IMG/VR virus record: IMGVR_UViG_2703718769_000011
DNA length: 6,791 nt
DNA from: a virus
Lineage: Duplodnaviria; Heunggongvirae; Uroviricota; Caudoviricetes
Direction: 5' to 3' (one strand)
Shown piece by piece: positions 234-6,791 of the stretch (position 1 is the first letter of the stretch; every line of letters begins with the position of its first letter). The position numbers and the translations under genes are program-made. Under the pieces are notes generated by a model that was given only the letters and a program-made list of their open reading frames with translations, did no database searches and had not been told where the DNA came from.

Positions 234-1392
234 CACGCTCTACAGATGGTTCAGCTTCCACCAGGATTTCATTTTTTTGAGTATCGGATTCTGCCGTCTC
301 CACTGGAGCAGTTTGTGCTGCTGACTGCTGGAGAGCATTAGCAGAGCTCTGGTCTGTTTCTTCATGTTCAAACACGCCCTTTGTCGTCAGGTATTCGCTG
401 ATATATTTGTTCAGTGCAACGGGATCTTTGTGAATATCGATCGGACGTTCGCGAACAAGGCCAAAAATAGTCTGACGGTCATAGGCAAGTGCTTCGGGCT
501 GTTTGCGCATTGATGCTGAGATACGCTTCCAGTCTTCGCGATCCTTGTCGATAACCTCATTTGTCGCCCAGCGATGGATGGTACCGTCAATGTTTCCTGC
601 ATCCACATCACCGGGCCAGAGGGCGCAGGCCAGTTCATTGTCGAGTGTTTTCCATGTCTGTTTGTATTCGCGGCGAATGGCAACAGTGACAGCCCCGGTT
701 TTTTCAGCAGCGTTTTCAGTGTTCTGTTGGTTGACTCTGGCGCGGGCGAGATCAACAACAGACGTGTATTTTCCGGTTTCCTTGCGTTCACCTTCGCGAC
801 GTTTTTTCCAGATGCGCATCTCTGCCTGAATTTCAGGCCATTTAGCGCCAGGCTCACATTTATTCTTAACCCACCCGATGGCATGCAGTTTAAGTTCAGG
901 ATACATGGCGTTAACTTCTGGCATTTTCATCAACGCTTCAACGATATGTCCGCCGAATGTTGCCATGTCTTCCTGTAGTAATTCCTGTGCGCTAATCACC
1001 ATATCAACGGTGATGTTTTCGCATGTGTCGAATTTAACCAGGACTGCGTTCTGTACTTCAGGGGACAGCTTGTCAAAATTGACGTTCATCGGATCGGATT
1101 CGGGTTCGACCGGGACAAAGGACGCAGACTCCTCATCCCAGCGGTTTTCCTGCATATATTCGGTATCCCAGGAATCGAGGGCAGGGCGGGGTATGCCGGG
1201 TTTATCCTCGCAGACAATAAATTTATAAGCGCAGTCCTGAGCTGCCGGGAATTGCTCCAGAAATTGCCAGTGAAATTTTGCGCGTGCGCGACGCTCATCA
1301 CCGGCTTCAATGGCAGTGGCCACCGCAACAGCGCTATCTTCTTCTATGGCCTGCTCGTCAGGAATAGCAGCGCAAATAAAGATTTTATTCAT
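229..1392 (-). CDS. Hypothetical acidic protein, 387 aa as read; the 3' end is fused to IS1, so it is probably C-terminally truncated
   Basis: Long ORF with ATG at 1392..1390 preceded by GAGGT 9 nt upstream. No motif I can assign. The stop TAG (229..231) and two bases of the last codon lie inside the IS1 terminal repeat. Last gene of the minus-strand block after the DicB-like and YdfD-like genes. Confidence 0.6.
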   Translation of the reverse strand: MNKIFICAAIPDEQAIEEDSAVAVATAIEAGDERRARAKFHWQFLEQFPAAQDCAYKFIVCEDKPGIPRPALDSWDTEYMQENRWDEESASFVPVEPESDPMNVNFDKLSPEVQNAVLVKFDTCENITVDMVISAQELLQEDMATFGGHIVEALMKMPEVNAMYPELKLHAIGWVKNKCEPGAKWPEIQAEMRIWKKRREGERKETGKYTSVVDLARARVNQQNTENAAEKTGAVTVAIRREYKQTWKTLDNELACALWPGDVDAGNIDGTIHRWATNEVIDKDREDWKRISASMRKQPEALAYDRQTIFGLVRERPIDIHKDPVALNKYISEYLTTKGVFEHEETDQSSANALQQSAAQTAPVETAESDTQKNEILVEAEPSVERG

Positions 1393-1487
1393 TGTGTTTT
1401 AACCTCATTACAGATTTCAGGGTGAACGAATCCCTGCCATTGCTGGCATTTTTAATCCGTTGGTATGGCGTTAATATGGCTGGCGGG

Positions 1488-1676
1488 TTATCCAGCCGGT
1501 GTTTCGTTATTCAGGTACAGCGATACTTTTTTTACCGGGAGGCATTCACCGGGGATTTTTTGTTCGTCCCTTACCTGAATGCAGGATGACTTACTGTCAT
1601 AAATTCCGGTAATCACATTCTGCGGCTCACCCGTTATAAGAAAAACGGTCATCACCAGTGCAAATGCTGAAGTCAT
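1488..1676 (-). CDS. Small membrane protein, 62 aa, YdfD-like (Qin-prophage small lysis protein family) candidate
   Basis: Its ATG overlaps the stop of the upstream DicB-like gene in an ATGA (1673..1676), implying translational coupling. The N-terminus MTSAFALVMTVFLITG is a hydrophobic transmembrane or signal-like segment. Size and position immediately after the dicB-like gene match the dicB-ydfD arrangement; I cannot recall the YdfD sequence, so the assignment is by context and architecture. Confidence 0.5.
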   Translation of the reverse strand: MTSAFALVMTVFLITGEPQNVITGIYDSKSSCIQVRDEQKIPGECLPVKKVSLYLNNETPAG

Positions 1677-1861
1677 TGACGTTCTCCGAAAATACCAAGT
1701 TTAATAAGGGCAATTCGGGAAAGAATGGAATTATCATTGAGCAGATAAGGCTCATATTTCCGCATATTAATGGCATCCTCAGTAAACGCTTTATTACTGA
1801 GCAGAACACCAATATCAAAACAACCTTCAGACGTATTAACGTTTGGTAATAACGTTTCCAT
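1673..1861 (-). CDS. dicB: DicB-like cell division inhibitor (62 aa)
   Basis: The translation METLLPNVNTSEGCFDIGVLLSNKAFTEDAINMRKYEPYLLNDN... closely resembles my recollection of E. coli DicB (starting MKTLLPNVNTSEGCF..., 62 aa). SD GAGGA lies 7 nt upstream of the ATG. It sits downstream of a DicF-like RNA, as in the Qin dicB operon. Confidence 0.75.
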   Translation of the reverse strand: METLLPNVNTSEGCFDIGVLLSNKAFTEDAINMRKYEPYLLNDNSILSRIALIKLGIFGERQ

Positions 1862-2038
1862 TATCGCGTCCTCAACAATGAATTTTGTGATGCAGTGCCT
1901 GGTGCCTCCAGGTGACGTTAACCAGTTAACAATTAACGCCGGATTGTTAGTTGATGTCTGTTACGCAAGTAAAAGACCGCTTGTTTTAACTGTTCCGCGT
2001 GCGCATAGCCGCATTCACCGCATCACAAAATTCACTTT

Positions 2039-2077
2039 AAAAAGGGCGGATATCCATTTCCGCCGAATCACCAGAAA
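2039..2077 (-). ncRNA. dicF: DicF-like small RNA (shortened variant) ending in an intrinsic terminator
   Basis: The minus strand reads UUUCUGGUGAUUCGGCGGAAAUGGAUAUCCGCCCUUUUU. The 5' UUUCUGGUGA matches the DicF seed as I recall it, and the 3' end is a GGCGGA/UCCGCC hairpin followed by a U-run. The following ...TTTTTAAAGTGAATTTTGTGATG also resembles sequence downstream of K-12 dicF. The dicB-like ATG lies about 175 nt downstream. Boundaries are approximate. Confidence 0.5.
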
Positions 2078-2440
2078 AGTGATAACAGAGGTTGTTGTGG
2101 CTGGGGTGTCACTTAAGCGTATGGTCAACCTGACAACCCGGTGTCCTCAACGGGGGAAGGAATAACCCCGCCATACTTACCGCCGCGCCATTTCGCGGAT
2201 TACCACAACCGGAAGCGCACGATCGAATTAAATTTAACGACGACCTATACAGAGAGACGAACTTCGCCGTGCGCTTTCGTGTTGTGTGCCTGCTTTAACC
2301 ACGTCAGGCGAGGTGGACTCGTTATTCCCCAACAACAAGGATCTTGTTAATCTGGATATCCACAACAAGAATAAGAGTATTCAGAGTGATCGCTGAATTA
2401 ACGGCAGCAATGGCGGCTATTCCTTAATTACCAGGCATCA

Positions 2441-2593
2441 TTAGTCAGAGTTTCTTGCTAACCAGCGATGCGCGCCAGCTTCGGTTTTAAACGTTTTACT
2501 TTTGGTATACGTCATCGCGGTAAACGTGCCGTCCTGGTTGGGGAAGACGCCGCACACCAGAGATTCATTGTTGCCAAGATTGAGCATATCCAT
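2441..2593 (-). CDS. Small prophage protein, 50 aa (below the ORF-track size cutoff); possibly YdfA/YdaF-like, first gene of the leftward operon
   Basis: ATG at 2593..2591 is preceded by TGAGGT with a 4-nt spacer. Translation: MDMLNLGNNESLVCGVFPNQDGTFTAMTYTKSKTFKTEAGAHRWLARNSD, stop TAA at 2441..2443. The family assignment is from context only (position relative to the dicF/dicB-like genes); I cannot recall a reference sequence. Confidence 0.5.
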   Translation of the reverse strand: MDMLNLGNNESLVCGVFPNQDGTFTAMTYTKSKTFKTEAGAHRWLARNSD

Positions 2594-2782
2594 GTTGACC
2601 TCATTTACCCTTAACGCCGGGTCGCGGAACTAAAAACCTGCTGCGCTGTTATACAAAGTGTTCCCGCCGTCATGTTCATACGCCTCGGGCTGGCTACTTA
2701 ACCCCTGACCACTGCCTGGTAACTCGAAGTATTGCCCTGCGTTCTGTGGGGCGGGGTGGGTTGATGAATATAATCTACAAGT

Positions 2783-2815
2783 AAAAACTGTTTGATGTCA
2801 ACAATAAATAACTGT
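2783..2815. promoter_or_regulatory. Candidate leftward operator/promoter (OL/PL-like)
   Basis: AAAAACTGTT-TGATGTC-AACAAT (2783..2805) resembles the 3818..3846 palindrome with the same 7-bp spacing, and a further AACTGTC lies at 2809..2815. On the minus strand a perfect TTGACA (-35, 2801..2796) is followed after 18 bp by TAGATT (-10, 2777..2772), pointing at the 50-aa gene. Confidence 0.35.
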
Positions 2816-2826
2816 CATTTTGGACG

Positions 2827-2851
2827 AAGAAAACTCCCTCATCAGTGGGAG
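2827..2851 (-). terminator. Possible weak intrinsic terminator after the toxin gene
   Basis: Minus strand CTCCC-ACTGATGA-GGGAG followed by TTTTCTTC, 15 nt after the toxin stop. The stem is only 5 bp. Confidence 0.3.
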
Positions 2852-2865
2852 CAAAAGCGGTGGGC

Positions 2866-3153
2866 TTAAAGATTAGCGGGGAATTGTCGACGGGCGTGAA
2901 CCACGTTTACAATTTCAATACCTGAAGTTGTCACCCGGTACAAAATTATGTAATTGGGGTGAGCCACAATCTCGCGCAAACCTGGCACTCTGTCGCTTGG
3001 CGGATATAAATACGGATGTTCGGATAACGGCAGGACGCAAGCTCTTAAGCGTTGCCATAAGCGTTCTGCCGCATCTATGTCGAAACGGGCAATATAACTA
3101 GTTATATCATCCAGATCGGTATCTGCGCTTTCAAGCCATAACACGGGTAACAT
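2866..3153 (-). CDS. parE: ParE/RelE-family type II toxin (ParE2-like), 95 aa
   Basis: The translation MLPVLWLESADTDLDDITSYIARFDIDAAERLWQRL...EIVAHPNYIILYRVTTSGIEIVNVVHARRQ has the size and pattern of RelE/ParE plasmid-stabilisation toxins. Its ATG directly follows the antitoxin stop (TAA-ATG at 3156..3151). Confidence 0.8.
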   Translation of the reverse strand: MLPVLWLESADTDLDDITSYIARFDIDAAERLWQRLRACVLPLSEHPYLYPPSDRVPGLREIVAHPNYIILYRVTTSGIEIVNVVHARRQFPANL

Positions 3154-3345
3154 TTACTGCTCTCTCCGTTCCTTGCGAATTTTGGCAAAGCGTTCTGCCA
3201 TTCTGCGCTCAACTTCATCATGTGGAATAGCAGGACGTGGATCAGCAAGGCTTGCGGCTACTTTTGCGCGTAACCATTCGTTATAACTGTTTTCTTGCTC
3301 AACGGTTTCAAATTCAGAAACCATTGGTGAAAGGGCTGTATTCAT
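3154..3345 (-). CDS. Small antitoxin, 63 aa, PaaA2-like (ParE-associated antitoxin)
   Basis: ATG at 3345..3343 is preceded by a strong SD AAGAGGAGG with a 6-nt spacer. The ORF-track start at 3408 has no SD and would overlap the repressor stop. Translation: MNTALSPMVSEFETVEQENSYNEWLRAKVAASLADPRPAIPHDEVERRMAERFAKIRKERREQ, charged and probably disordered. It sits immediately upstream of the ParE-like toxin; the size matches the 63-aa PaaA2 of the described paaR2-paaA2-parE2 system as I recall it. Confidence 0.65.
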   Translation of the reverse strand: MNTALSPMVSEFETVEQENSYNEWLRAKVAASLADPRPAIPHDEVERRMAERFAKIRKERREQ

Positions 3346-3374
3346 GACATACCTCCTCTTACAGGTGGTAGAGA

Positions 3375-3776
3375 TTACGCTCGGTGCCCCTTTTGGGCTG
3401 CGATCCACCGAGCAACAGTTTCTTCCATTGACTTTTTCTTATTTTTTATTTCCTGAAGCATTTTTTCTTGGTCTTCATCGGGAAATGCACTAAAAGCTTG
3501 GAGCAATTCACGTTGGCGAGGGCCAATTTTCATCGTGTCAGGAGTAAAAATTTGCTCTCCCTCTTCTGGAGGTAATAAAAACCAATGTAGTGGATGCCCT
3601 GTAACCTCGACCAACTTATCTAAGCTGGAGGCTTTAGGTGTGGCTTTTCCACTGACCCATTGCTGAACAGTTTGCTGTGTCACACCGACTCTACGAGCAA
3701 GTTCAGCTTGGCTCCATCCTGTTTCTTTGAGGAGCCTGCTAATTCTGTACATAGATACTTCTAGGGCCTTCATCAT
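3375..3776 (-). CDS. HTH (XRE/cI-type) transcriptional repressor, DicA/PaaR2-like; candidate prophage immunity repressor
   Basis: N-terminal helix-turn-helix SQAELARRVGVTQQTVQQWVSG. The C-terminal part (IGPRQRELLQAFSAFPDEDQEKMLQEI) resembles the DicA C-terminal region as I recall it. Divergent from the Cro-like gene across an operator-bearing intergenic region. The start could be ATG 3776 (no SD, possibly leaderless) or the internal ATG at 3752. Confidence 0.8.
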   Translation of the reverse strand: MMKALEVSMYRISRLLKETGWSQAELARRVGVTQQTVQQWVSGKATPKASSLDKLVEVTGHPLHWFLLPPEEGEQIFTPDTMKIGPRQRELLQAFSAFPDEDQEKMLQEIKNKKKSMEETVARWIAAQKGHRA

Positions 3777-3884
3777 TATTCGATTTTACAGGTAAATACT
3801 GTTAAAAGCACCACAATAAAAAACTGTTGATCATGAACAGTTTTTTATTGTAGCCTTTATCTATGAACTTCAGAGGAGGGCAAC
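3777..3884. promoter_or_regulatory. Divergent operator/promoter region (OR-like) between the repressor and Cro-like genes
   Basis: Perfect 11-bp inverted repeat AAAAAACTGTT-GATCATG-AACAGTTTTTT at 3818..3846, plus another ACTGTT at 3798..3803. SD GAGGAGGG at 3874..3880 serves the Cro-like ATG at 3885. A minus-strand TAAAAT at 3788..3783 sits just upstream of the repressor ATG, suggesting a leaderless transcript. Confidence 0.6.
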
Positions 3885-4145
3885 ATGCTCAATAGCACCC
3901 GTGAAAAAATTAAGCAGAAATACACACAGGCTGAAATAGGACGCTATATGGGAGTAACCCAACAAACTGTTTGGCAATGGTTTAGCTTGGGTATTCCTCC
4001 CAAACAGGTAATCCCTTTATGCCAACTAATGCAGTGGGGGGTTACTCCTCACGAACTCCGACCTGATATTTATCCTAACCCAACAGACGGCTTGCCTGCT
4101 GAGTTTCAGACTAGCACACAGCCAGCGACGGGAGTTGATTCATGA
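3885..4145 (+). CDS. Cro-like HTH protein (YdaS-like), 86 aa
   Basis: HTH QAEIGRYMGVTQQTVWQWFSLG, strong SD, first gene of the rightward operon. Its stop overlaps the next start in an ATGA (4142..4145). Confidence 0.7.
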   Translation: MLNSTREKIKQKYTQAEIGRYMGVTQQTVWQWFSLGIPPKQVIPLCQLMQWGVTPHELRPDIYPNPTDGLPAEFQTSTQPATGVDS

Positions 4146-4567
4146 AAATCAAGCATGAGCACATCCGCATGGCGATGAATGCCTGGGCATATCCTGACGG
4201 TGAGAAAGTTCCCGCAGCTGAAATAGCCCGGACTTATTTCGAACTGGGGATGACGTTCCCGGAACTGTACGACGACACTCATCCTGAGGCCCTGGCTCGT
4301 AATACCCAGAAAATTTTCCGTTGGCTGGATAAAGACACCCATGATGCTGTTGAAAAAATTCAGGCTCTGTTACCGGCGATCGAAAAGGCGATGCCGCCTT
4401 TGCTGGTGGCCCGTATGCGCAGTCACAGTTCTGAGTACTACCGGGAGATTGTCGAACGGCGGGATCGGCTGGTGAAGGATGTCGACGATTTTGTTGCGTC
4501 AGCGGTCGTTTTGTATGACCAGATAAATCGCGGCGGCCCGGCAGGGAATGCTGTGGTGATGCACTAA
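4142..4567 (+). CDS. ydaT: YdaT-like protein (CII-like regulator family; historically annotated toxin YdaT), 141 aa
   Basis: The translation begins MKIKHEHI..., which matches my recollection of Rac-prophage YdaT. It is translationally coupled to the Cro-like gene and has SD GGGAG 7 nt upstream. Confidence 0.6.
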   Translation: MKIKHEHIRMAMNAWAYPDGEKVPAAEIARTYFELGMTFPELYDDTHPEALARNTQKIFRWLDKDTHDAVEKIQALLPAIEKAMPPLLVARMRSHSSEYYREIVERRDRLVKDVDDFVASAVVLYDQINRGGPAGNAVVMH

Positions 4568-4589
4568 AAGCACGGTGTTCGGGGGTTTT

Positions 4590-5558
4590 ATGAGCAGCAA
4601 GCTTCATGGTCTTGTCTGGGAAGGATGCGCCTTCACTGGCATGATCTTATCAAGGGTGGCAGTAATGGCCCGTCTTGCAGATTACAGCAATGACGAGGGG
4701 GTGTCATGGCCTGCTATGGAAACGATCCGGCGTCAGATCGGTGCCAGAAGTGAATCCACCGTGAAATCTGCGATTGCAGAACTGGCGAAAGAGGGCTGGC
4801 TGACGAAGGAAGAGCGTAAGATCGGTGGGCGTAACGTAAGCAATATCTATCGGCTTAATGTGGAAAAACTCGAAGCAGCGGCAGCGGCGGCGCGTGAGGC
4901 ATATAAACCGAAAAGAAAAATTAGCCCGGCAAAAAATGACCCGTTAACAGTTGACCCGTCAAATATTGACCCCTCAACGGTTGACCCGTCAAATTCTGAG
5001 GGGTCAACCATTGATAAAAAACAGCCGATTAGGGGGGCGATGATTGACCCCGATCCGTCAGTATTAAAACCTGATCCGTCAGATAAAAGATCTTCTTGTC
5101 CGGACGTTTCACTTCCGGACGAAAAAAAATCATCTCCGGTTGAACGCTTTCTGGATAAACACCCTGATGCGCATACGTGGAATGTGCCGAAGCGACAGTG
5201 GGGAACCCGTGATGATATTACCTGTGCGCAGTGGATCTGGGGGCGTGTTGTTGCGCTGTATGAACACGCAGCCAGTGATGATGGTGAGGTTTCTCGCCCC
5301 AGAGAGCCAAACTGGACGACATGGGCTAACGATGTCCGGATGATGCGCATGCTGGATGGCCGCAGTCACCGGCAGATTTGTGAAATGTTCAGTCGGGTGC
5401 AGCGGGATCCGTTCTGGGTAAAAAATATCATGAGTCCGGCAAAACTGCGCGAAAAATGGGATGAACTGGTCATTCGTCTTGGGCGTGGGCCTGCGCAGAG
5501 TTGCGTGAATCATATTTCTGAACCGGACACTGAAATTCCACCGGGTTTCAGGGGGTAA
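4590..5558 (+). CDS. Phage replication initiation protein (O-like): N-terminal winged-HTH domain, iteron-encoded linker, DnaT-like C-terminal tail
   Basis: The N-terminus (from the ATG at 4590, GGGGG just upstream; the ORF-track start at 4575 is a GTG) has an HTH-like region ...VSWPAMETIRRQIGARSESTVKSAIAELAKEGWL. The C-terminus ...SEPDTEIPPGFRG matches the E. coli DnaT C-terminus (...SEPDSQIPPGFRG) as I recall it. Direct repeats lie inside the coding sequence. Immediately upstream of the DnaC-like gene. Confidence 0.75.
   Translation: MSSKLHGLVWEGCAFTGMILSRVAVMARLADYSNDEGVSWPAMETIRRQIGARSESTVKSAIAELAKEGWLTKEERKIGGRNVSNIYRLNVEKLEAAAAAAREAYKPKRKISPAKNDPLTVDPSNIDPSTVDPSNSEGSTIDKKQPIRGAMIDPDPSVLKPDPSDKRSSCPDVSLPDEKKSSPVERFLDKHPDAHTWNVPKRQWGTRDDITCAQWIWGRVVALYEHAASDDGEVSRPREPNWTTWANDVRMMRMLDGRSHRQICEMFSRVQRDPFWVKNIMSPAKLREKWDELVIRLGRGPAQSCVNHISEPDTEIPPGFRG
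4936..5007. repeat. Candidate replication-origin iterons inside the O-like gene
   Basis: Four copies of TTGACCC(G/C)TCAA or its inverted form start at 4951, 4966, 4981 and 4996 (15-bp period), with an imperfect fifth at about 4937..4948. An A-rich stretch follows (5013..5022) and a more distant related copy lies at about 5044..5060. Confidence 0.6.
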
Positions 5559-5564
5559 CTGACC

Positions 5565-6317
5565 ATGAAAGATATCGCGACAGTTGCAGTTGGTGTTCTG
5601 GAACGCATCCGCAGACTGGCTCCTGAGCACGTTCCCGTGCCGTACAGTACGACGGAGGAGTGGCGCGAGTGGCAACTTGCCGAAGGCCGGAAATACTGCG
5701 AGGAGATTAACCGCCGGAATCGTCAGTTGCGGGTGGAAAAAATCCTGAACCGTTCGGGCATCCAGCCGCTGCACCGCAAATGTTCGTTCGCGAATTACCA
5801 GGTGCGGAACGACGGGCAGAAACATGCGCTGAGCCAGGCTAAATCCATCGCTGAGGAAATGATGACCGGTTATACAAACTTCGTGTTCAGCGGGAATCCG
5901 GGAACCGGAAAAAATCATCTGGCGGCGGCTGTGGGTAATCGTCTGCTGAAGGCTGGTAAATCCGTGATAGTGGTCACCGTGGCGGATGTGATGAGCGCGT
6001 TACATGCCAGCTATGACGACGGGCTGTCAGGGGAAAAATTTTTGCGTGAACTGTGCGAAGTGGACCTCCTGGTTCTTGACGAAATTGGCATCCAGCGTGA
6101 GACGAAAAACGAGCAGGTGGTACTGCACCAGATTGTTGACCGCCGGACGGCATCACTGTGCAGTGTCGGGATGCTGACAAACCTGAATCATGCCGCAATG
6201 AGCACGCTTCTTGGTGAGAGGATTATGGACAGGATGACCATGAACGGTGGTCGCTGGGTGAGTTTTAACTGGGAAAGCTGGCGTCCCAATGTCAGCCATC
6301 TGAGAGTATTGAAGTAA
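5565..6317 (+). CDS. DnaC-family helicase loader (phage-encoded DnaC paralog), 250 aa
   Basis: Walker [14 protein letters not shown] and Walker [10 protein letters not shown]. There is extended similarity to E. coli DnaC as I recall it (NRSGI.PLH..CSF.NY, ...GMLTN.N...LLGER.MDRM, ...FNW.S). SD GGGGG lies 8 nt upstream. Confidence 0.85.
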
Positions 6318-6339
6318 TTTTTATCCGGAGGAAATTTTA

Positions 6340-6791
6340 ATGGAAACCGTTTTTGACGCACTGAAAGCACTGAAAAGAGCCTCTTCACAGGTAGTGGCGG
6401 CCCGCCTTGGAATCAGCCGTGAAGATGCGGTCAACGAACTGTGGAAACTGAAGCGCCGTGGTGAAGCGGATAACAAGGGGTCGATGTGGTGGCTGATTCA
6501 GGCTGGTGAAAGTGAACCTGTGTCACAGGTACCGAAAGTGACAGCGCAAATGCTGACTGAGGCGATTGAACAACATGGCCCACAAACGGCGGATGAACTG
6601 GCACTGATGTTCGGAATTACCTCCCGCCGGGCGAATTCATCGCTGGCGATGGCAATCAGCAAAGGGCGTCTGATTCGCGTGAATCAGGGCGGTAAATTTC
6701 GTTACTGCATACCGGGCGCTGATTTACCGGCAGAGCCGGAAGCTGCATCCGTAGCGGAAACGGATGGTAAAGCCTTTCCTCAGCCAGCAGG
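6340..6791 (+). CDS. Hypothetical protein, 3'-truncated by the window end (150 codons visible, not in the ORF track)
   Basis: ATG at 6340 is preceded by SD GGAGGA (6327..6332). The frame stays open to the window end. Translation starts [43 protein letters not shown]... and has a second similar segment ([32 protein letters not shown]). Confidence 0.55.

Follow-up and report, generated by a model that had tools for sequence, protein, structure and literature searches.

The PaaA2–ParE2-type toxin–antitoxin pair of one prophage joined to the repressor of another in a probable Rac/CP-933-like immunity region of Escherichia coli

The window, i.e. the whole stretch of 6,791 nt of DNA that was analysed, is very probably the immunity region of a Rac/CP-933-like lambdoid E. 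coli prophage with a leftward repressor–PaaA2–ParE2 operon, as judged from its genes and from the homologous systems. The arrangement of paaR–paaA–parE together with an immunity switch has already been published and is not a new kind of system; a toxin–antitoxin pair within a prophage switch between lysis and lysogeny has been studied by genetic, biochemical, and structural means. A preliminary description of this DNA had regarded the three-component architecture as probably not new and the coupling of toxin expression to the lysogenic repressor as notable; this coupling is the subject of an earlier study (PMC8630535). The locus is an ordinary one, save that the toxin pair of one prophage is joined to the repressor of another prophage. 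What the genes encode, how they are spaced, the operator motifs and how these vary with the repressor type, and the mosaic structure were observed directly.

Positions 234-6791 are ~100% identical to the prophage that adjoins ompW in E. coli OkiPb01678, which contains int, xis, an exonuclease gene, dicB, Q, and more. The reference for the comparisons was the system of CP-933P, a cryptic prophage of E. coli O157:H7 (Hallez 2010; Jurenas 2021, PMC8630535; structures 5CW7 and 3ZBE), in which PaaR2 takes the part of CI, YdaS that of Cro, and YdaT that of CII (Jurenas et al. 2021, PMC8630535).

The repressor, antitoxin, and toxin genes

The three co-oriented open reading frames that had been described before were confirmed on the minus strand, i.e. 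the repressor gene at 3375-3776, the antitoxin gene at 3154-3345, and the toxin gene at 2866-3153. The repressor and antitoxin genes are separated by 29 nt (3346-3374), and the antitoxin and toxin genes by 0 nt, the stop codon TAA being followed directly by ATG. Opposite the repressor lies the gene for the Cro-like YdaS, followed by those for YdaT, an O-like protein, and a DnaC-like protein.

The assignment of the 95-aa toxin to the ParE family was borne out by Pfam ParE_toxin (PF05016, 61.8 bits at a cut-off of 23, E=9.4e-17) and by ParE2 in the PDB (5cw7_B, E=2e-58, ~95% identity over residues 1-93), so that the gene is of the parE2 type. The toxin is 91.6% identical to that of the CP-933P-type locus of O157:H7 and 66% identical to that of the other O157 locus. 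For the 63-aa antitoxin, the proposed PaaA type also held in protein searches. The sole Pfam match was PaaA2 (PF21217, 73.7 bits at a cut-off of 27, 1.1e-20), NCBIfam NF050103 yielded 87.7 bits (cut-off 50), and PaaA2 in the PDB (3zbe) matched with E=1.5e-33 and ~89% identity. The antitoxin identities to the CP-933P-type locus and the other O157 locus are 90.5% and 65%, respectively. Its start codon is an ATG with AGGAGG upstream; the mechanical list of open reading frames extends the gene to a GTG at 3408, and the NCBI record of the identical sequence annotates a gene of 192 nt. Toxicity, neutralisation by the cognate antitoxin, and post-segregational killing are known for the homologue and would be expected here by homology (toxin ~95%, antitoxin ~89% identical).

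The 29-nt spacer (3346-3374, minus strand) holds the Shine-Dalgarno sequence AGGAGG of the antitoxin gene and forms no significant hairpin (fold z=-0.96). From the start of the repressor gene to the stop codon of the toxin gene, a scan of the minus strand picked up nothing that resembles a promoter or a terminator, in agreement with the earlier claim that no terminator lies between the genes. A concealed terminator or other structure in the gap between the repressor and antitoxin genes was rejected, as neither the scan nor the fold revealed one. The sole terminator-like site on the minus strand within 2400-4300 is a hairpin with a T-rich tail directly 3′ of the toxin stop codon (2823-2852, hairpin 2852->2833). 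Its stability is modest (-11.4 kcal/mol, z=-1.33) and statistically not distinctive, and relatives have a different hairpin and T-run at the equivalent position. At the sequence level, the repressor, antitoxin, and toxin genes are consistent with one transcription unit. For the homologous case of CP-933P, experiments have shown a three-gene operon that is controlled by PaaR2, with a leaderless paaR2 mRNA (PMC8630535).

Alternatively, the toxin–antitoxin (TA) pair might be an autonomous two-gene cassette, expressed from its own promoter and independently of the immunity switch. The evolutionary history of the cassette differs from that of the repressor on one side and from that of the operators on both sides, so that it moves as a separate module, and a TA reporter of CP-933P was appreciably expressed in both switch states. 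However, a consensus scan of the minus strand from 3776 to 3346 gave no sigma-70-like promoter, and the gap of just 29 nt between the repressor and antitoxin genes is filled by the Shine-Dalgarno sequence. A DNA-binding domain is absent from the antitoxin according to the Pfam search, as it is from PaaA2 (PMC8630535), and the pair could therefore not autoregulate. All ParE2-type and ParE1-type cassettes that were inspected lie directly downstream of a PaaR-like gene, and operon organisation and control by PaaR2 were established by experiment for the homologue. We thus consider an autonomous cassette very unlikely and favour co-transcription with the repressor gene.

The repressor, YdaS, and YdaT

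The repressor is a CI analogue of 133 aa, for which Pfam and the homologues indicate an N-terminal 434-like helix-turn-helix (HTH) and a C-terminal PaaR-type domain. The Pfam matches are HTH_3 (50 bits, 2.8e-13) and Phage_CI_repr (3.7e-6), and none was found to the S24 peptidase domain, which confers RecA-stimulated autocleavage. The best relative of solved structure is the HTH of the 434 repressor (E ~3e-5); for the repressor as such, the PDB search yielded distant HTH relatives only. DicA had been among the candidate relatives, but the DicA model NF007257 of NCBIfam gives 52.1 bits, below its cut-off of 101, and therefore the repressor is not an orthologue of DicA.

The repressor shares 91% identity with its counterpart in the second O157 locus, and its overall identity to PaaR2 is 33%. 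The similarity to PaaR2 is confined to the C-terminal domain (E=1e-19), which is common to six PaaR-like proteins, and the N-terminal half differs, indicating that the DNA-binding half is not orthologous to that of PaaR2. The proposed match to the paaR2–paaA2–parE2 architecture is thus valid for the gene order and the protein families, but it does not extend to the regulator beyond this C-terminal similarity. The near-identical recognition helices that had been noticed in the repressor and the Cro-like protein, VGVTQQTVQQW versus MGVTQQTVWQW, were found again, and the two HTH domains share 44% identity over 57 aa (E=2e-8).

The ydaS-type gene for this Cro analogue of 86 aa (3885-4145, plus strand; Pfam YdaS_toxin, 44 bits, 2e-11) encodes a protein that is 72% identical to YdaS of the second O157 locus and 24% identical to that of CP-933P. 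The following ydaT-type gene for a CII analogue of 141 aa (4142-4567, plus strand; Pfam YdaT_toxin, 3.5e-11) encodes a protein that is 93% identical to the CP-933P-type YdaT. At the ydaS/ydaT boundary, which corresponds to a cro/cII-type boundary, lies a predicted YdaT operator OM, TTGATTCATGAAAATCAA (4135-4152). It is an exact match to TTGATT-N6-AATCAA, of which 0.07 are expected; this YdaT site has been defined by footprinting (PMC9986795).

Operators and promoters

The 15-bp motif ACAR-N7-YTGT occurs five times in the window versus 0.43 expected, and all five sites lie within two predicted control regions. Three are found in the 108-bp intergenic region between the repressor gene and ydaS (OR), at distances of 24-25 bp. 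OR-a (ACAGGTAAATACTGT, 3788-3802) overlaps PRM and is the positional analogue of lambda OR3, OR-b (ACAATAAAAAACTGT, 3813-3827) is that of OR2, and OR-c (ACAGTTTTTTATTGT, 3837-3851) lies within the PR spacer and is that of OR1. The three sites are invariant in four loci with the same repressor type, and the flanking bases vary. Control regions of loci that have another type of repressor do not contain the motif, and clusters of the published PaaR2 half-site occur only in the PaaR2-type locus. We therefore predict that the five sites are operators of the repressor; they resemble the operators of phage 434.

A palindromic operator had been proposed at 3818-3846. The palindrome is real and longer than this, with perfectly complementary arms at 3813-3828 and 3836-3851, but two neighbouring 15-bp operators in mirror-image orientation, OR-b in the left arm and OR-c in the right arm, account for it better than one long operator. 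The two-site reading was preferred because a lone copy of the 15-mer is present at 3788-3802 and two more at OL, and because one of the OL sites is inverted in relatives with the ACAR/YTGT ends kept. Relatives differ in the 7 nt that separate the arms, but not in the arms themselves. A LexA box was considered for the centre of the palindrome, which reads CTGT-N9-ACAG (the LexA consensus is CTGT-N8-ACAG), and was rejected on account of this spacing and because the central bases vary among relatives and the flanks do not.

The predicted -10 hexamer of PRM, TAAAAT (3783-3788, minus strand), lies 6 nt upstream of the repressor ATG and is invariant in four related loci. The ATG is not preceded by a Shine-Dalgarno sequence, suggestive of a leaderless repressor mRNA as in CP-933P. 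PR was predicted as TTGATC-18 nt-TAGCCT (3827-3856, plus strand), directed towards ydaS, ydaT, and the replication genes, on the basis of a 44-nt stretch that is 70% similar, in inverted orientation, to the region of the PL-like promoter. The predicted hexamers of both PR and PRM are weak and fall below the threshold of the consensus scan. The promoter scan did yield a PL-like promoter, TTGACA-18 nt-TAGATT, with 10/12 matches (2772-2801, minus strand), directed towards the genes for DUF1391, dicB, and the exonuclease. It is overlapped by the OL region (2777-2815) with the operators ACAAGTAAAAACTGT at 2777-2791 and ACAATAAATAACTGT at 2801-2815, and these two sites are placed relative to PL as OR-c and OR-b are to PR. 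They lie ~1 kb away from OR, beyond the toxin gene. The conserved PL leader (2594-2772) was rejected as a structured RNA, as it folds no better than shuffled sequences (z=+0.51). Among known RNA families (DicF and others), none reaches its gathering score, and the sole match below threshold is STnc100.

In CP-933P, the footprints of PaaR2 and YdaS cover PRM and PR, PaaR2 represses PR and PL and generates bistability, and the promoter PL933P downstream of the TA genes was found by experiment (PMC8630535). These results bear on the possibility that the HTH protein is not a lysogenic repressor, but the DNA-binding half of a split antitoxin that serves the TA operon alone. TA systems of three components, in which the regulator is a protein of its own, have been described (PMC3141249), and the HTH protein has no S24 autocleavage domain; PaaR2 has none either and is unresponsive to mitomycin C (PMC8630535). 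Yet a dedicated TA regulator is extremely improbable, given the bistable repression of PR and PL by PaaR2, the recurrence of the operator motif over a strong PL-like promoter 1 kb off and beyond the TA genes, the overlap of the OR sites with the promoter of the ydaS–ydaT–O–dnaC operon, and the position of the HTH gene, which is that of cI, dicA, and racR. The earlier proposal that the protein doubles as the lysogenic repressor is upheld by this cI position, opposite a Cro analogue in a lambdoid immunity region.

Proposed mechanism and role of the toxin–antitoxin pair

The leftward operon would be transcribed from a weak, probably leaderless PRM-type promoter through the repressor, antitoxin, and toxin genes and would end at the hairpin behind the toxin gene. 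With its 434-like HTH and its PaaR-type oligomerisation domain, the repressor would bind the three OR sites and the two sites over the PL-like promoter. It would thereby shut off the rightward ydaS–ydaT–replication operon and the leftward DUF1391–dicB–exonuclease operon and keep its own operon, and hence the TA pair, transcribed. YdaS, with its near-identical recognition helix, would compete for the repressor sites in a Cro-like manner, and YdaT would bind OM in a CII-like manner; in CP-933P, YdaT activates PRE (PMC8630535, PMC9986795). PaaA2 would neutralise ParE2 by direct binding. As PaaA2 is expected to be protease-labile, loss of the module would free the DNA-damaging toxin and kill the cell, so that the immunity region would be stabilised. 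Co-transcription, the leaderless start, repression, bistability, and addiction are ascribed to the window by analogy with the experiments on CP-933P. There, the TA pair is addictive and stabilises a plasmid by post-segregational killing, which depends on ClpAP/ClpXP; the TA genes are transcribed in both states of the switch, and ParE2 activity was seen in neither (PMC8630535).

As had been suggested, the TA pair lies where lambda has rexAB, between the gene of the CI analogue and OL/PL, and the replacement of rexAB by paaA2–parE2 has been stated for the homologue (Prolic-Kalinsek et al. 2023, PMC9986795). The pair could thus mainly serve in anti-phage defence, i.e. in RexAB-like abortive infection or exclusion, instead of addiction. 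Many prophage genes in the rexAB slot are defence genes, and the pair would be expressed from the lysogenic promoter. However, no PADLOC defence model matched the toxin or the antitoxin (the repressor gave generic HTH matches only), post-segregational killing is the only phenotype demonstrated for the homologue, and no phage challenge data were found in the literature. A main role in defence appears unlikely; it overlaps with the favoured addiction, because the operon structure is identical in both cases.

Hybrid structure of the locus

As the repressor matches the regulator of the other paaR–paaA–parE system of O157:H7 at 91% identity, the locus is, by sequence comparison, a natural hybrid of two described O157:H7 systems. 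The TA pair, ydaT, and the O-like gene are of the CP-933P type, and the repressor, the OR and OL operators, and ydaS are of the type of the second O157 locus. Homology to CP-933P-type DNA stops exactly at 3346; over 3347-4130, the identity to CP-933P is at background (36-54%) and BLAST gives no alignment. The breakpoints are at the antitoxin start codon and beside the YdaT operator. Of 5,426 complete E. coli genomes, 2 contained this hybrid in addition to the window. Ten E. coli records are at least 95% identical to the repressor–ydaS segment, and these represent the two OkiPb genomes and short partial matches.

The mosaic shows an apparent reassortment of PaaA–ParE cassettes and immunity specificities (repressor N-terminal domain, OR, OL, and ydaS) among E. 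coli prophages, with the C-terminal domain of PaaR as the constant part. Full repression in the system of Hallez 2010 reportedly required PaaR2 together with the PaaA2–ParE2 complex. A role of the C-terminal domain beyond oligomerisation, i.e. as an interface through which the PaaA–ParE complex feeds back on repression, seems doubtful to us; if true, any immunity type could be paired with any TA paralogue. A related hypothesis (PMC8630535) holds that recombination between immunity regions would favour those that keep the TA pair. The hybrid is a natural test of whether a TA pair constrains the recombination of immunity regions, and a convenient one, as the breakpoints are at the antitoxin start and beside the YdaT operator. 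With the hybrid, one can likewise ask whether PaaR regulators that recognise different DNA sequences can replace each other in the control of one TA pair.

Comparison with known systems

The locus shares the backbone of DUF1391/ydfA, dicB, DUF1482, and a recE-like exonuclease gene with the K-12 prophages Qin (DicA/DicC) and Rac (RacR/YdaS/YdaT), as well as ydaS, ydaT, ydaU-like, and ydaV-like genes and the position of the repressor; unlike in the window, no TA pair follows the repressor gene in the K-12 prophages. In common with lambda cI–rexA–rexB, two accessory genes that the lysogen expresses come after a leftward repressor gene, and OL/PL after these. A divergent Cro-like gene lies across three operators at a spacing of ~24 bp, a CII-like activator gene comes next, and the repressor mRNA is probably leaderless. 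In contrast, the proteins do not resemble lambda CI, Cro, CII, or Rex in sequence, a RecA-cleavable domain is lacking from the repressor, and the cargo is a type II TA pair instead of RexAB.

With phage 434, the locus shares a recognition helix (TQQTVQQW versus TQQSIEQL in 434), which is nearly the same in repressor and Cro, and ACAA/TTGT-like operator ends, as in ACAATNNNNATTGT (PMC1636474). This similarity suggests a 434-like contact chemistry. The operators differ in that they have 15 bp (N7) instead of 14 bp (N6) and degenerate ACAR/YTGT ends, and the C-terminal domain of the repressor is of the PaaR type. As far as we found, this 434-like set of repressor and ACAR-N7-YTGT operators has not been characterised in the literature.

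The second paaR–paaA–parE locus is present in O157:H7 and O26:H11, and we take it to be the ‘paaR1-paaA1-parE1’ of Hallez 2010. By elimination, it was tentatively assigned to the CP-933M homologue of PMC8630535. The window matches it in the repressor (91%), YdaS (72%; DNA 85% over the first two thirds), the three identical OR operators, the type and geometry of OL, the -10 hexamer, and the Shine-Dalgarno sequence. It differs in the toxin (66%) and the antitoxin (65%), which are therefore paralogous, and in the unrelated O-like protein (23%).

With CP-933P, the window has in common the gene order and orientation, the toxin (92-95% identical), antitoxin (89-90%), YdaT (93%), and O-like protein (84%), the exact YdaT operator, PL/OL beyond the toxin gene, a repressor without S24 peptidase domain, and a TA pair directly behind a CI-analogue regulator with a shared C-terminal domain. 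In contrast, the N-terminal DNA-binding half of the regulator is unrelated (33% overall), YdaS is 24% identical, the operators are ACAR-N7-YTGT instead of GTTTAGTAA-type repeats, and OR has three sites, whereas CP-933P was described with four inverted repeats and three operators. In view of the different DNA-binding half and operators, the locus should be heteroimmune to CP-933P. The added value of the window is thus comparative, as the well-studied PaaA2–ParE2 pair is found with another repressor type and another set of operators.

Gene content and operon anatomy

Three minus-strand genes follow one another exactly where the preliminary description had placed them, i.e. a repressor (3375-3776, 133 aa), an antitoxin (3154-3345, 63 aa, its ATG seven bases after AGGAGG), and a toxin (2866-3153, 95 aa). 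The spacers of 29 nt and 0 nt (the antitoxin TAA is followed at once by the toxin ATG) were confirmed, and a consensus scan of 2400-4300 agreed with the earlier statement that no obvious terminator separates the genes: on the minus strand, no promoter-like or terminator-like site was found from the repressor start to the toxin stop. The sole minus-strand terminator-like hairpin of the scanned region lies just 3′ of the toxin gene (2852→2833). Folding at the repressor-antitoxin junction was no better than that of shuffled sequence.

The anticipated kinship with ParE2 and PaaA2 was borne out. The toxin matches Pfam ParE_toxin (61.8 bits, cut-off 23) and crystallised O157:H7 ParE2 (5CW7 chain B, E=2e-58, about 95% identity), and the antitoxin matches Pfam PaaA2 (73.7 bits, cut-off 27) and the PaaA2 structure 3ZBE (E=1.5e-33). 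The repressor has a Cro/C1-type HTH, and its closest solved relative is the phage 434 repressor. A comparison with DicA, which had also been proposed, gave a score of 52 bits, under the 101-bit cut-off of the DicA model, so that the repressor is not a DicA orthologue.

The plus strand carries genes for YdaS (3885-4145) and YdaT (4142-4567) family proteins, an O/YdaU-like replication protein (4575-5558), and a DnaC-like loader (5565-6317). On the minus strand are DUF1391 (2441-2593), dicB (1673-1861), DUF1482 (1488-1676), and a recE-like exonuclease gene (229-1392). A segment just upstream of dicB and overlapping its start (1829-2046, minus strand) resembles the sRNA family STnc100, though below the Rfam threshold (33.4 bits, gathering score 47, E=2.8e-5); DicF had no match anywhere in the window.

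Two bovine E. coli genomes have, next to ompW, a prophage that is essentially identical to 234-6791 and includes integrase, excisionase, and Q antiterminator genes. Positions 1-233 (ORF 9-218) are an IS1 end, the C-terminal part of the InsB transposase, adjoining the exonuclease gene. In OkiPb01678, whose prophage is otherwise identical and homologous from window base 234 onwards, that gene is intact at 2,472 nt; therefore, the source of the window has an IS1 insertion truncating it.

A hybrid of two O157:H7 loci

The proteins were compared with those of two paaR-paaA-parE loci from O157:H7 genomes: L004, of the CP-933P type, whose regulator begins MQKKE as published for PaaR2, and L005, whose regulator we take to be the paaR1 of Hallez 2010. 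Identities to L004 versus L005 are 91.6% and 66% for the toxin, 90.5% and 65% for the antitoxin, 93% and 82% for YdaT, and 84% and 23% for the O-like protein; the order is reversed for the repressor (33% and 91%) and YdaS (24% and 72%). BLASTN homology to L004 spans 2604 to 3346, the last base before the antitoxin ATG, and reappears from 4131 onwards, four bases ahead of the YdaT operator. By segment, the identity of the TA genes is 85-88% with L004 and 62-69% with L005. For the repressor gene, OR, and the 5′ part of ydaS, it is about 85% with L005, against 36-54% with L004, which yielded no BLAST alignment there.

The L005 type extends to the OL/PL segment (about 2766-2825), though the TA cassette separates this segment from the repressor gene; therefore, the operators on both sides match the repressor. 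Judged by sequence, the locus is a natural hybrid, in which repressor-matched operators flank a TA cassette from the other lineage. Separate ancestry of the cassette, and the expression of the CP-933P TA genes in both switch states (PMC8630535), are the two points in favour of an autonomous cassette with its own promoter, which we nevertheless regard as very unlikely. The 40 bp after the toxin stop (2826-2865), including the terminator-like hairpin, are unlike both O157:H7 locus types, and the toxin C-terminus has three extra residues (PANL instead of P); therefore, the 3′ end of the cassette is of a third origin.

In a near-identical RefSeq record (L001 13286-13559), ydaS is annotated as “frameshifted”. 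The window ORF is intact (86 aa), overlaps ydaT by ATGA, and differs from that record by one amino acid (Q49 versus L49). The mosaic junction (about 4083-4131) lies in the 3′ end of the gene, which makes the C-terminus of YdaS unlike those of 90-aa relatives; the annotation as a pseudogene probably arose artefactually, through comparison with the other lineage.

Only in its C-terminal domain is the repressor similar to PaaR2 (E=1e-19). This PaaR-type domain is conserved in six PaaR-like proteins, whose N-terminal halves are of at least four kinds, and all six genes are followed by a PaaA-ParE cassette. ParE2-type cassettes with 86-89% DNA identity also occur at L007 2236-2925 (NZ_CP148435.1) and L008 2298-2696 (NZ_AP042687.1), behind other PaaR-like proteins that are 51% and 63% identical to the window repressor, respectively. 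The L007 regulator gene and the antitoxin gene share a 32-nt overlap, and upstream of the former is a second Cro/CI-family gene. Regulators and TA pairs seem to have been reshuffled repeatedly.

Among 5,426 complete E. coli genomes, 634 contain the ParE2-type cassette and 518 the repressor-ydaS type of the window; only two, both OkiPb genomes, have the hybrid combination. In the sequenced Escherichia phage Evi, a regulator and an antitoxin of the CP-933P type are encoded. Where parE2 would be expected, Evi (LR597642.1; L006 3282-3560) has a roughly 280-bp gap, with no toxin gene annotated.

Predicted operators and promoters

The control elements described here are predictions at the sequence level. 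Five copies of the motif ACAR-N7-YTGT are present in the 6.8-kb window, versus 0.43 expected, and all are in two control regions, i.e. OR (3788, 3813, 3837) and OL (2777, 2801). None of the three OR sites varies among four loci with the same repressor type, while the seven bases between the palindrome arms do; one OL site is inverted in relatives, with its ends retained. Where the repressor is of another type, the control regions lack the motif, and published PaaR2 half-sites cluster in L004 only. Therefore, the window locus should be heteroimmune to CP-933P. The palindrome reported at 3818..3846 proved to be longer, with perfectly complementary arms (3813-3828 and 3836-3851), and the helix motif common to the repressor and the Cro-like YdaS was confirmed; their HTH domains are homologous (44% identity over 57 aa, E=2e-8).

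A PL-like promoter (2801→2772, minus strand, TTGACA-18-TAGATT, 10/12 matches) has one operator inside its spacer and another abutting the -35 hexamer. The region of the predicted PR (3827-3856, plus strand, TTGATC-18-TAGCCT) is a 70% mirror copy of the PL region with identical operator placement. Operators at OL/PL and over the replication-operon promoter contradict the very unlikely notion that the HTH regulator is part of a “split antitoxin” rather than the prophage repressor. The putative PRM hexamer TAAAAT (3788→3783, minus strand) lies 6 nt ahead of the repressor ATG, which is preceded by no Shine-Dalgarno sequence, an arrangement compatible with a leaderless transcript. The operator 3813-3827 is just upstream of a poor -35 region, a position like that of lambda OR2, where bound CI activates PRM. 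The YdaT operator TTGATT-N6-AATCAA, defined by Prolic-Kalinsek et al. 2023 (PMC9986795), has one exact occurrence (4135-4152), straddling the ydaS stop and the ydaT start.

The untranslated stretch that leads from the PL-like promoter to DUF1391 (2594-2765, minus strand) is about 95% conserved in the window and both O157:H7 types, although the adjacent operators are completely different. Rfam gave no match to this leader, and its predicted fold does not surpass that of shuffled sequence (z=+0.51); a nut-like site and a small ORF are both conceivable.

Comparison with known systems

Very probably, the locus is a repressor-controlled operon that includes an addictive TA pair stabilising the immunity region. 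The repressor would keep PR and PL off while its own operon, TA pair included, stays transcribed, and PaaA2 would wrap and neutralise ParE2. Upon loss of the module, the labile antitoxin would decay and the toxin would kill the cell, so that the immunity region would be stabilised. The window itself displays the anatomy; regulation and addiction are transferred by analogy from CP-933P.

The corresponding region of this cryptic prophage was analysed by Jurenas et al. 2021 (PMC8630535), who showed that paaR2-paaA2-parE2 form an operon and occupy the position of cI. The preliminary description had matched the locus to this three-component architecture, judged it “probably not new”, and pointed to an apparently lysogenic repressor with toxin expression coupled to it. 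Jurenas et al. also showed a leaderless paaR2 mRNA, like that of cI, footprints of PaaR2 and YdaS on PRM and PR, a PL promoter beyond the TA genes, with operators that match, a PRE-like promoter activated by YdaT, a bistable switch, and stabilisation of an unstable plasmid via post-segregational killing. The rexAB analogy is likewise in print, with paaA2-parE2 replacing rexA-rexB and PaaR2 replacing CI (PMC9986795). A mainly defensive role, as for RexAB, would be compatible with stabilisation, but we consider it unlikely, as PADLOC gave no match. These published findings and the exact YdaT operator support the earlier interpretation: the TA pair in the prophage switch is a real feature, correctly read and already known.

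A homologue of the CP-933P system is located in CP-933M (PMC8630535), and by elimination L005 is taken to be this homologue. The residual novelty is a rare natural recombinant of two described O157:H7 systems, together with operators, predicted to be 434-like, for whichever of the two repressor types has been less studied, here that of L005: the operator ends (ACAATNNNNATTGT; PMC1636474) and the TQQ-led recognition helix of phage 434 resemble those of the window, whose operators differ by one extra central base pair.
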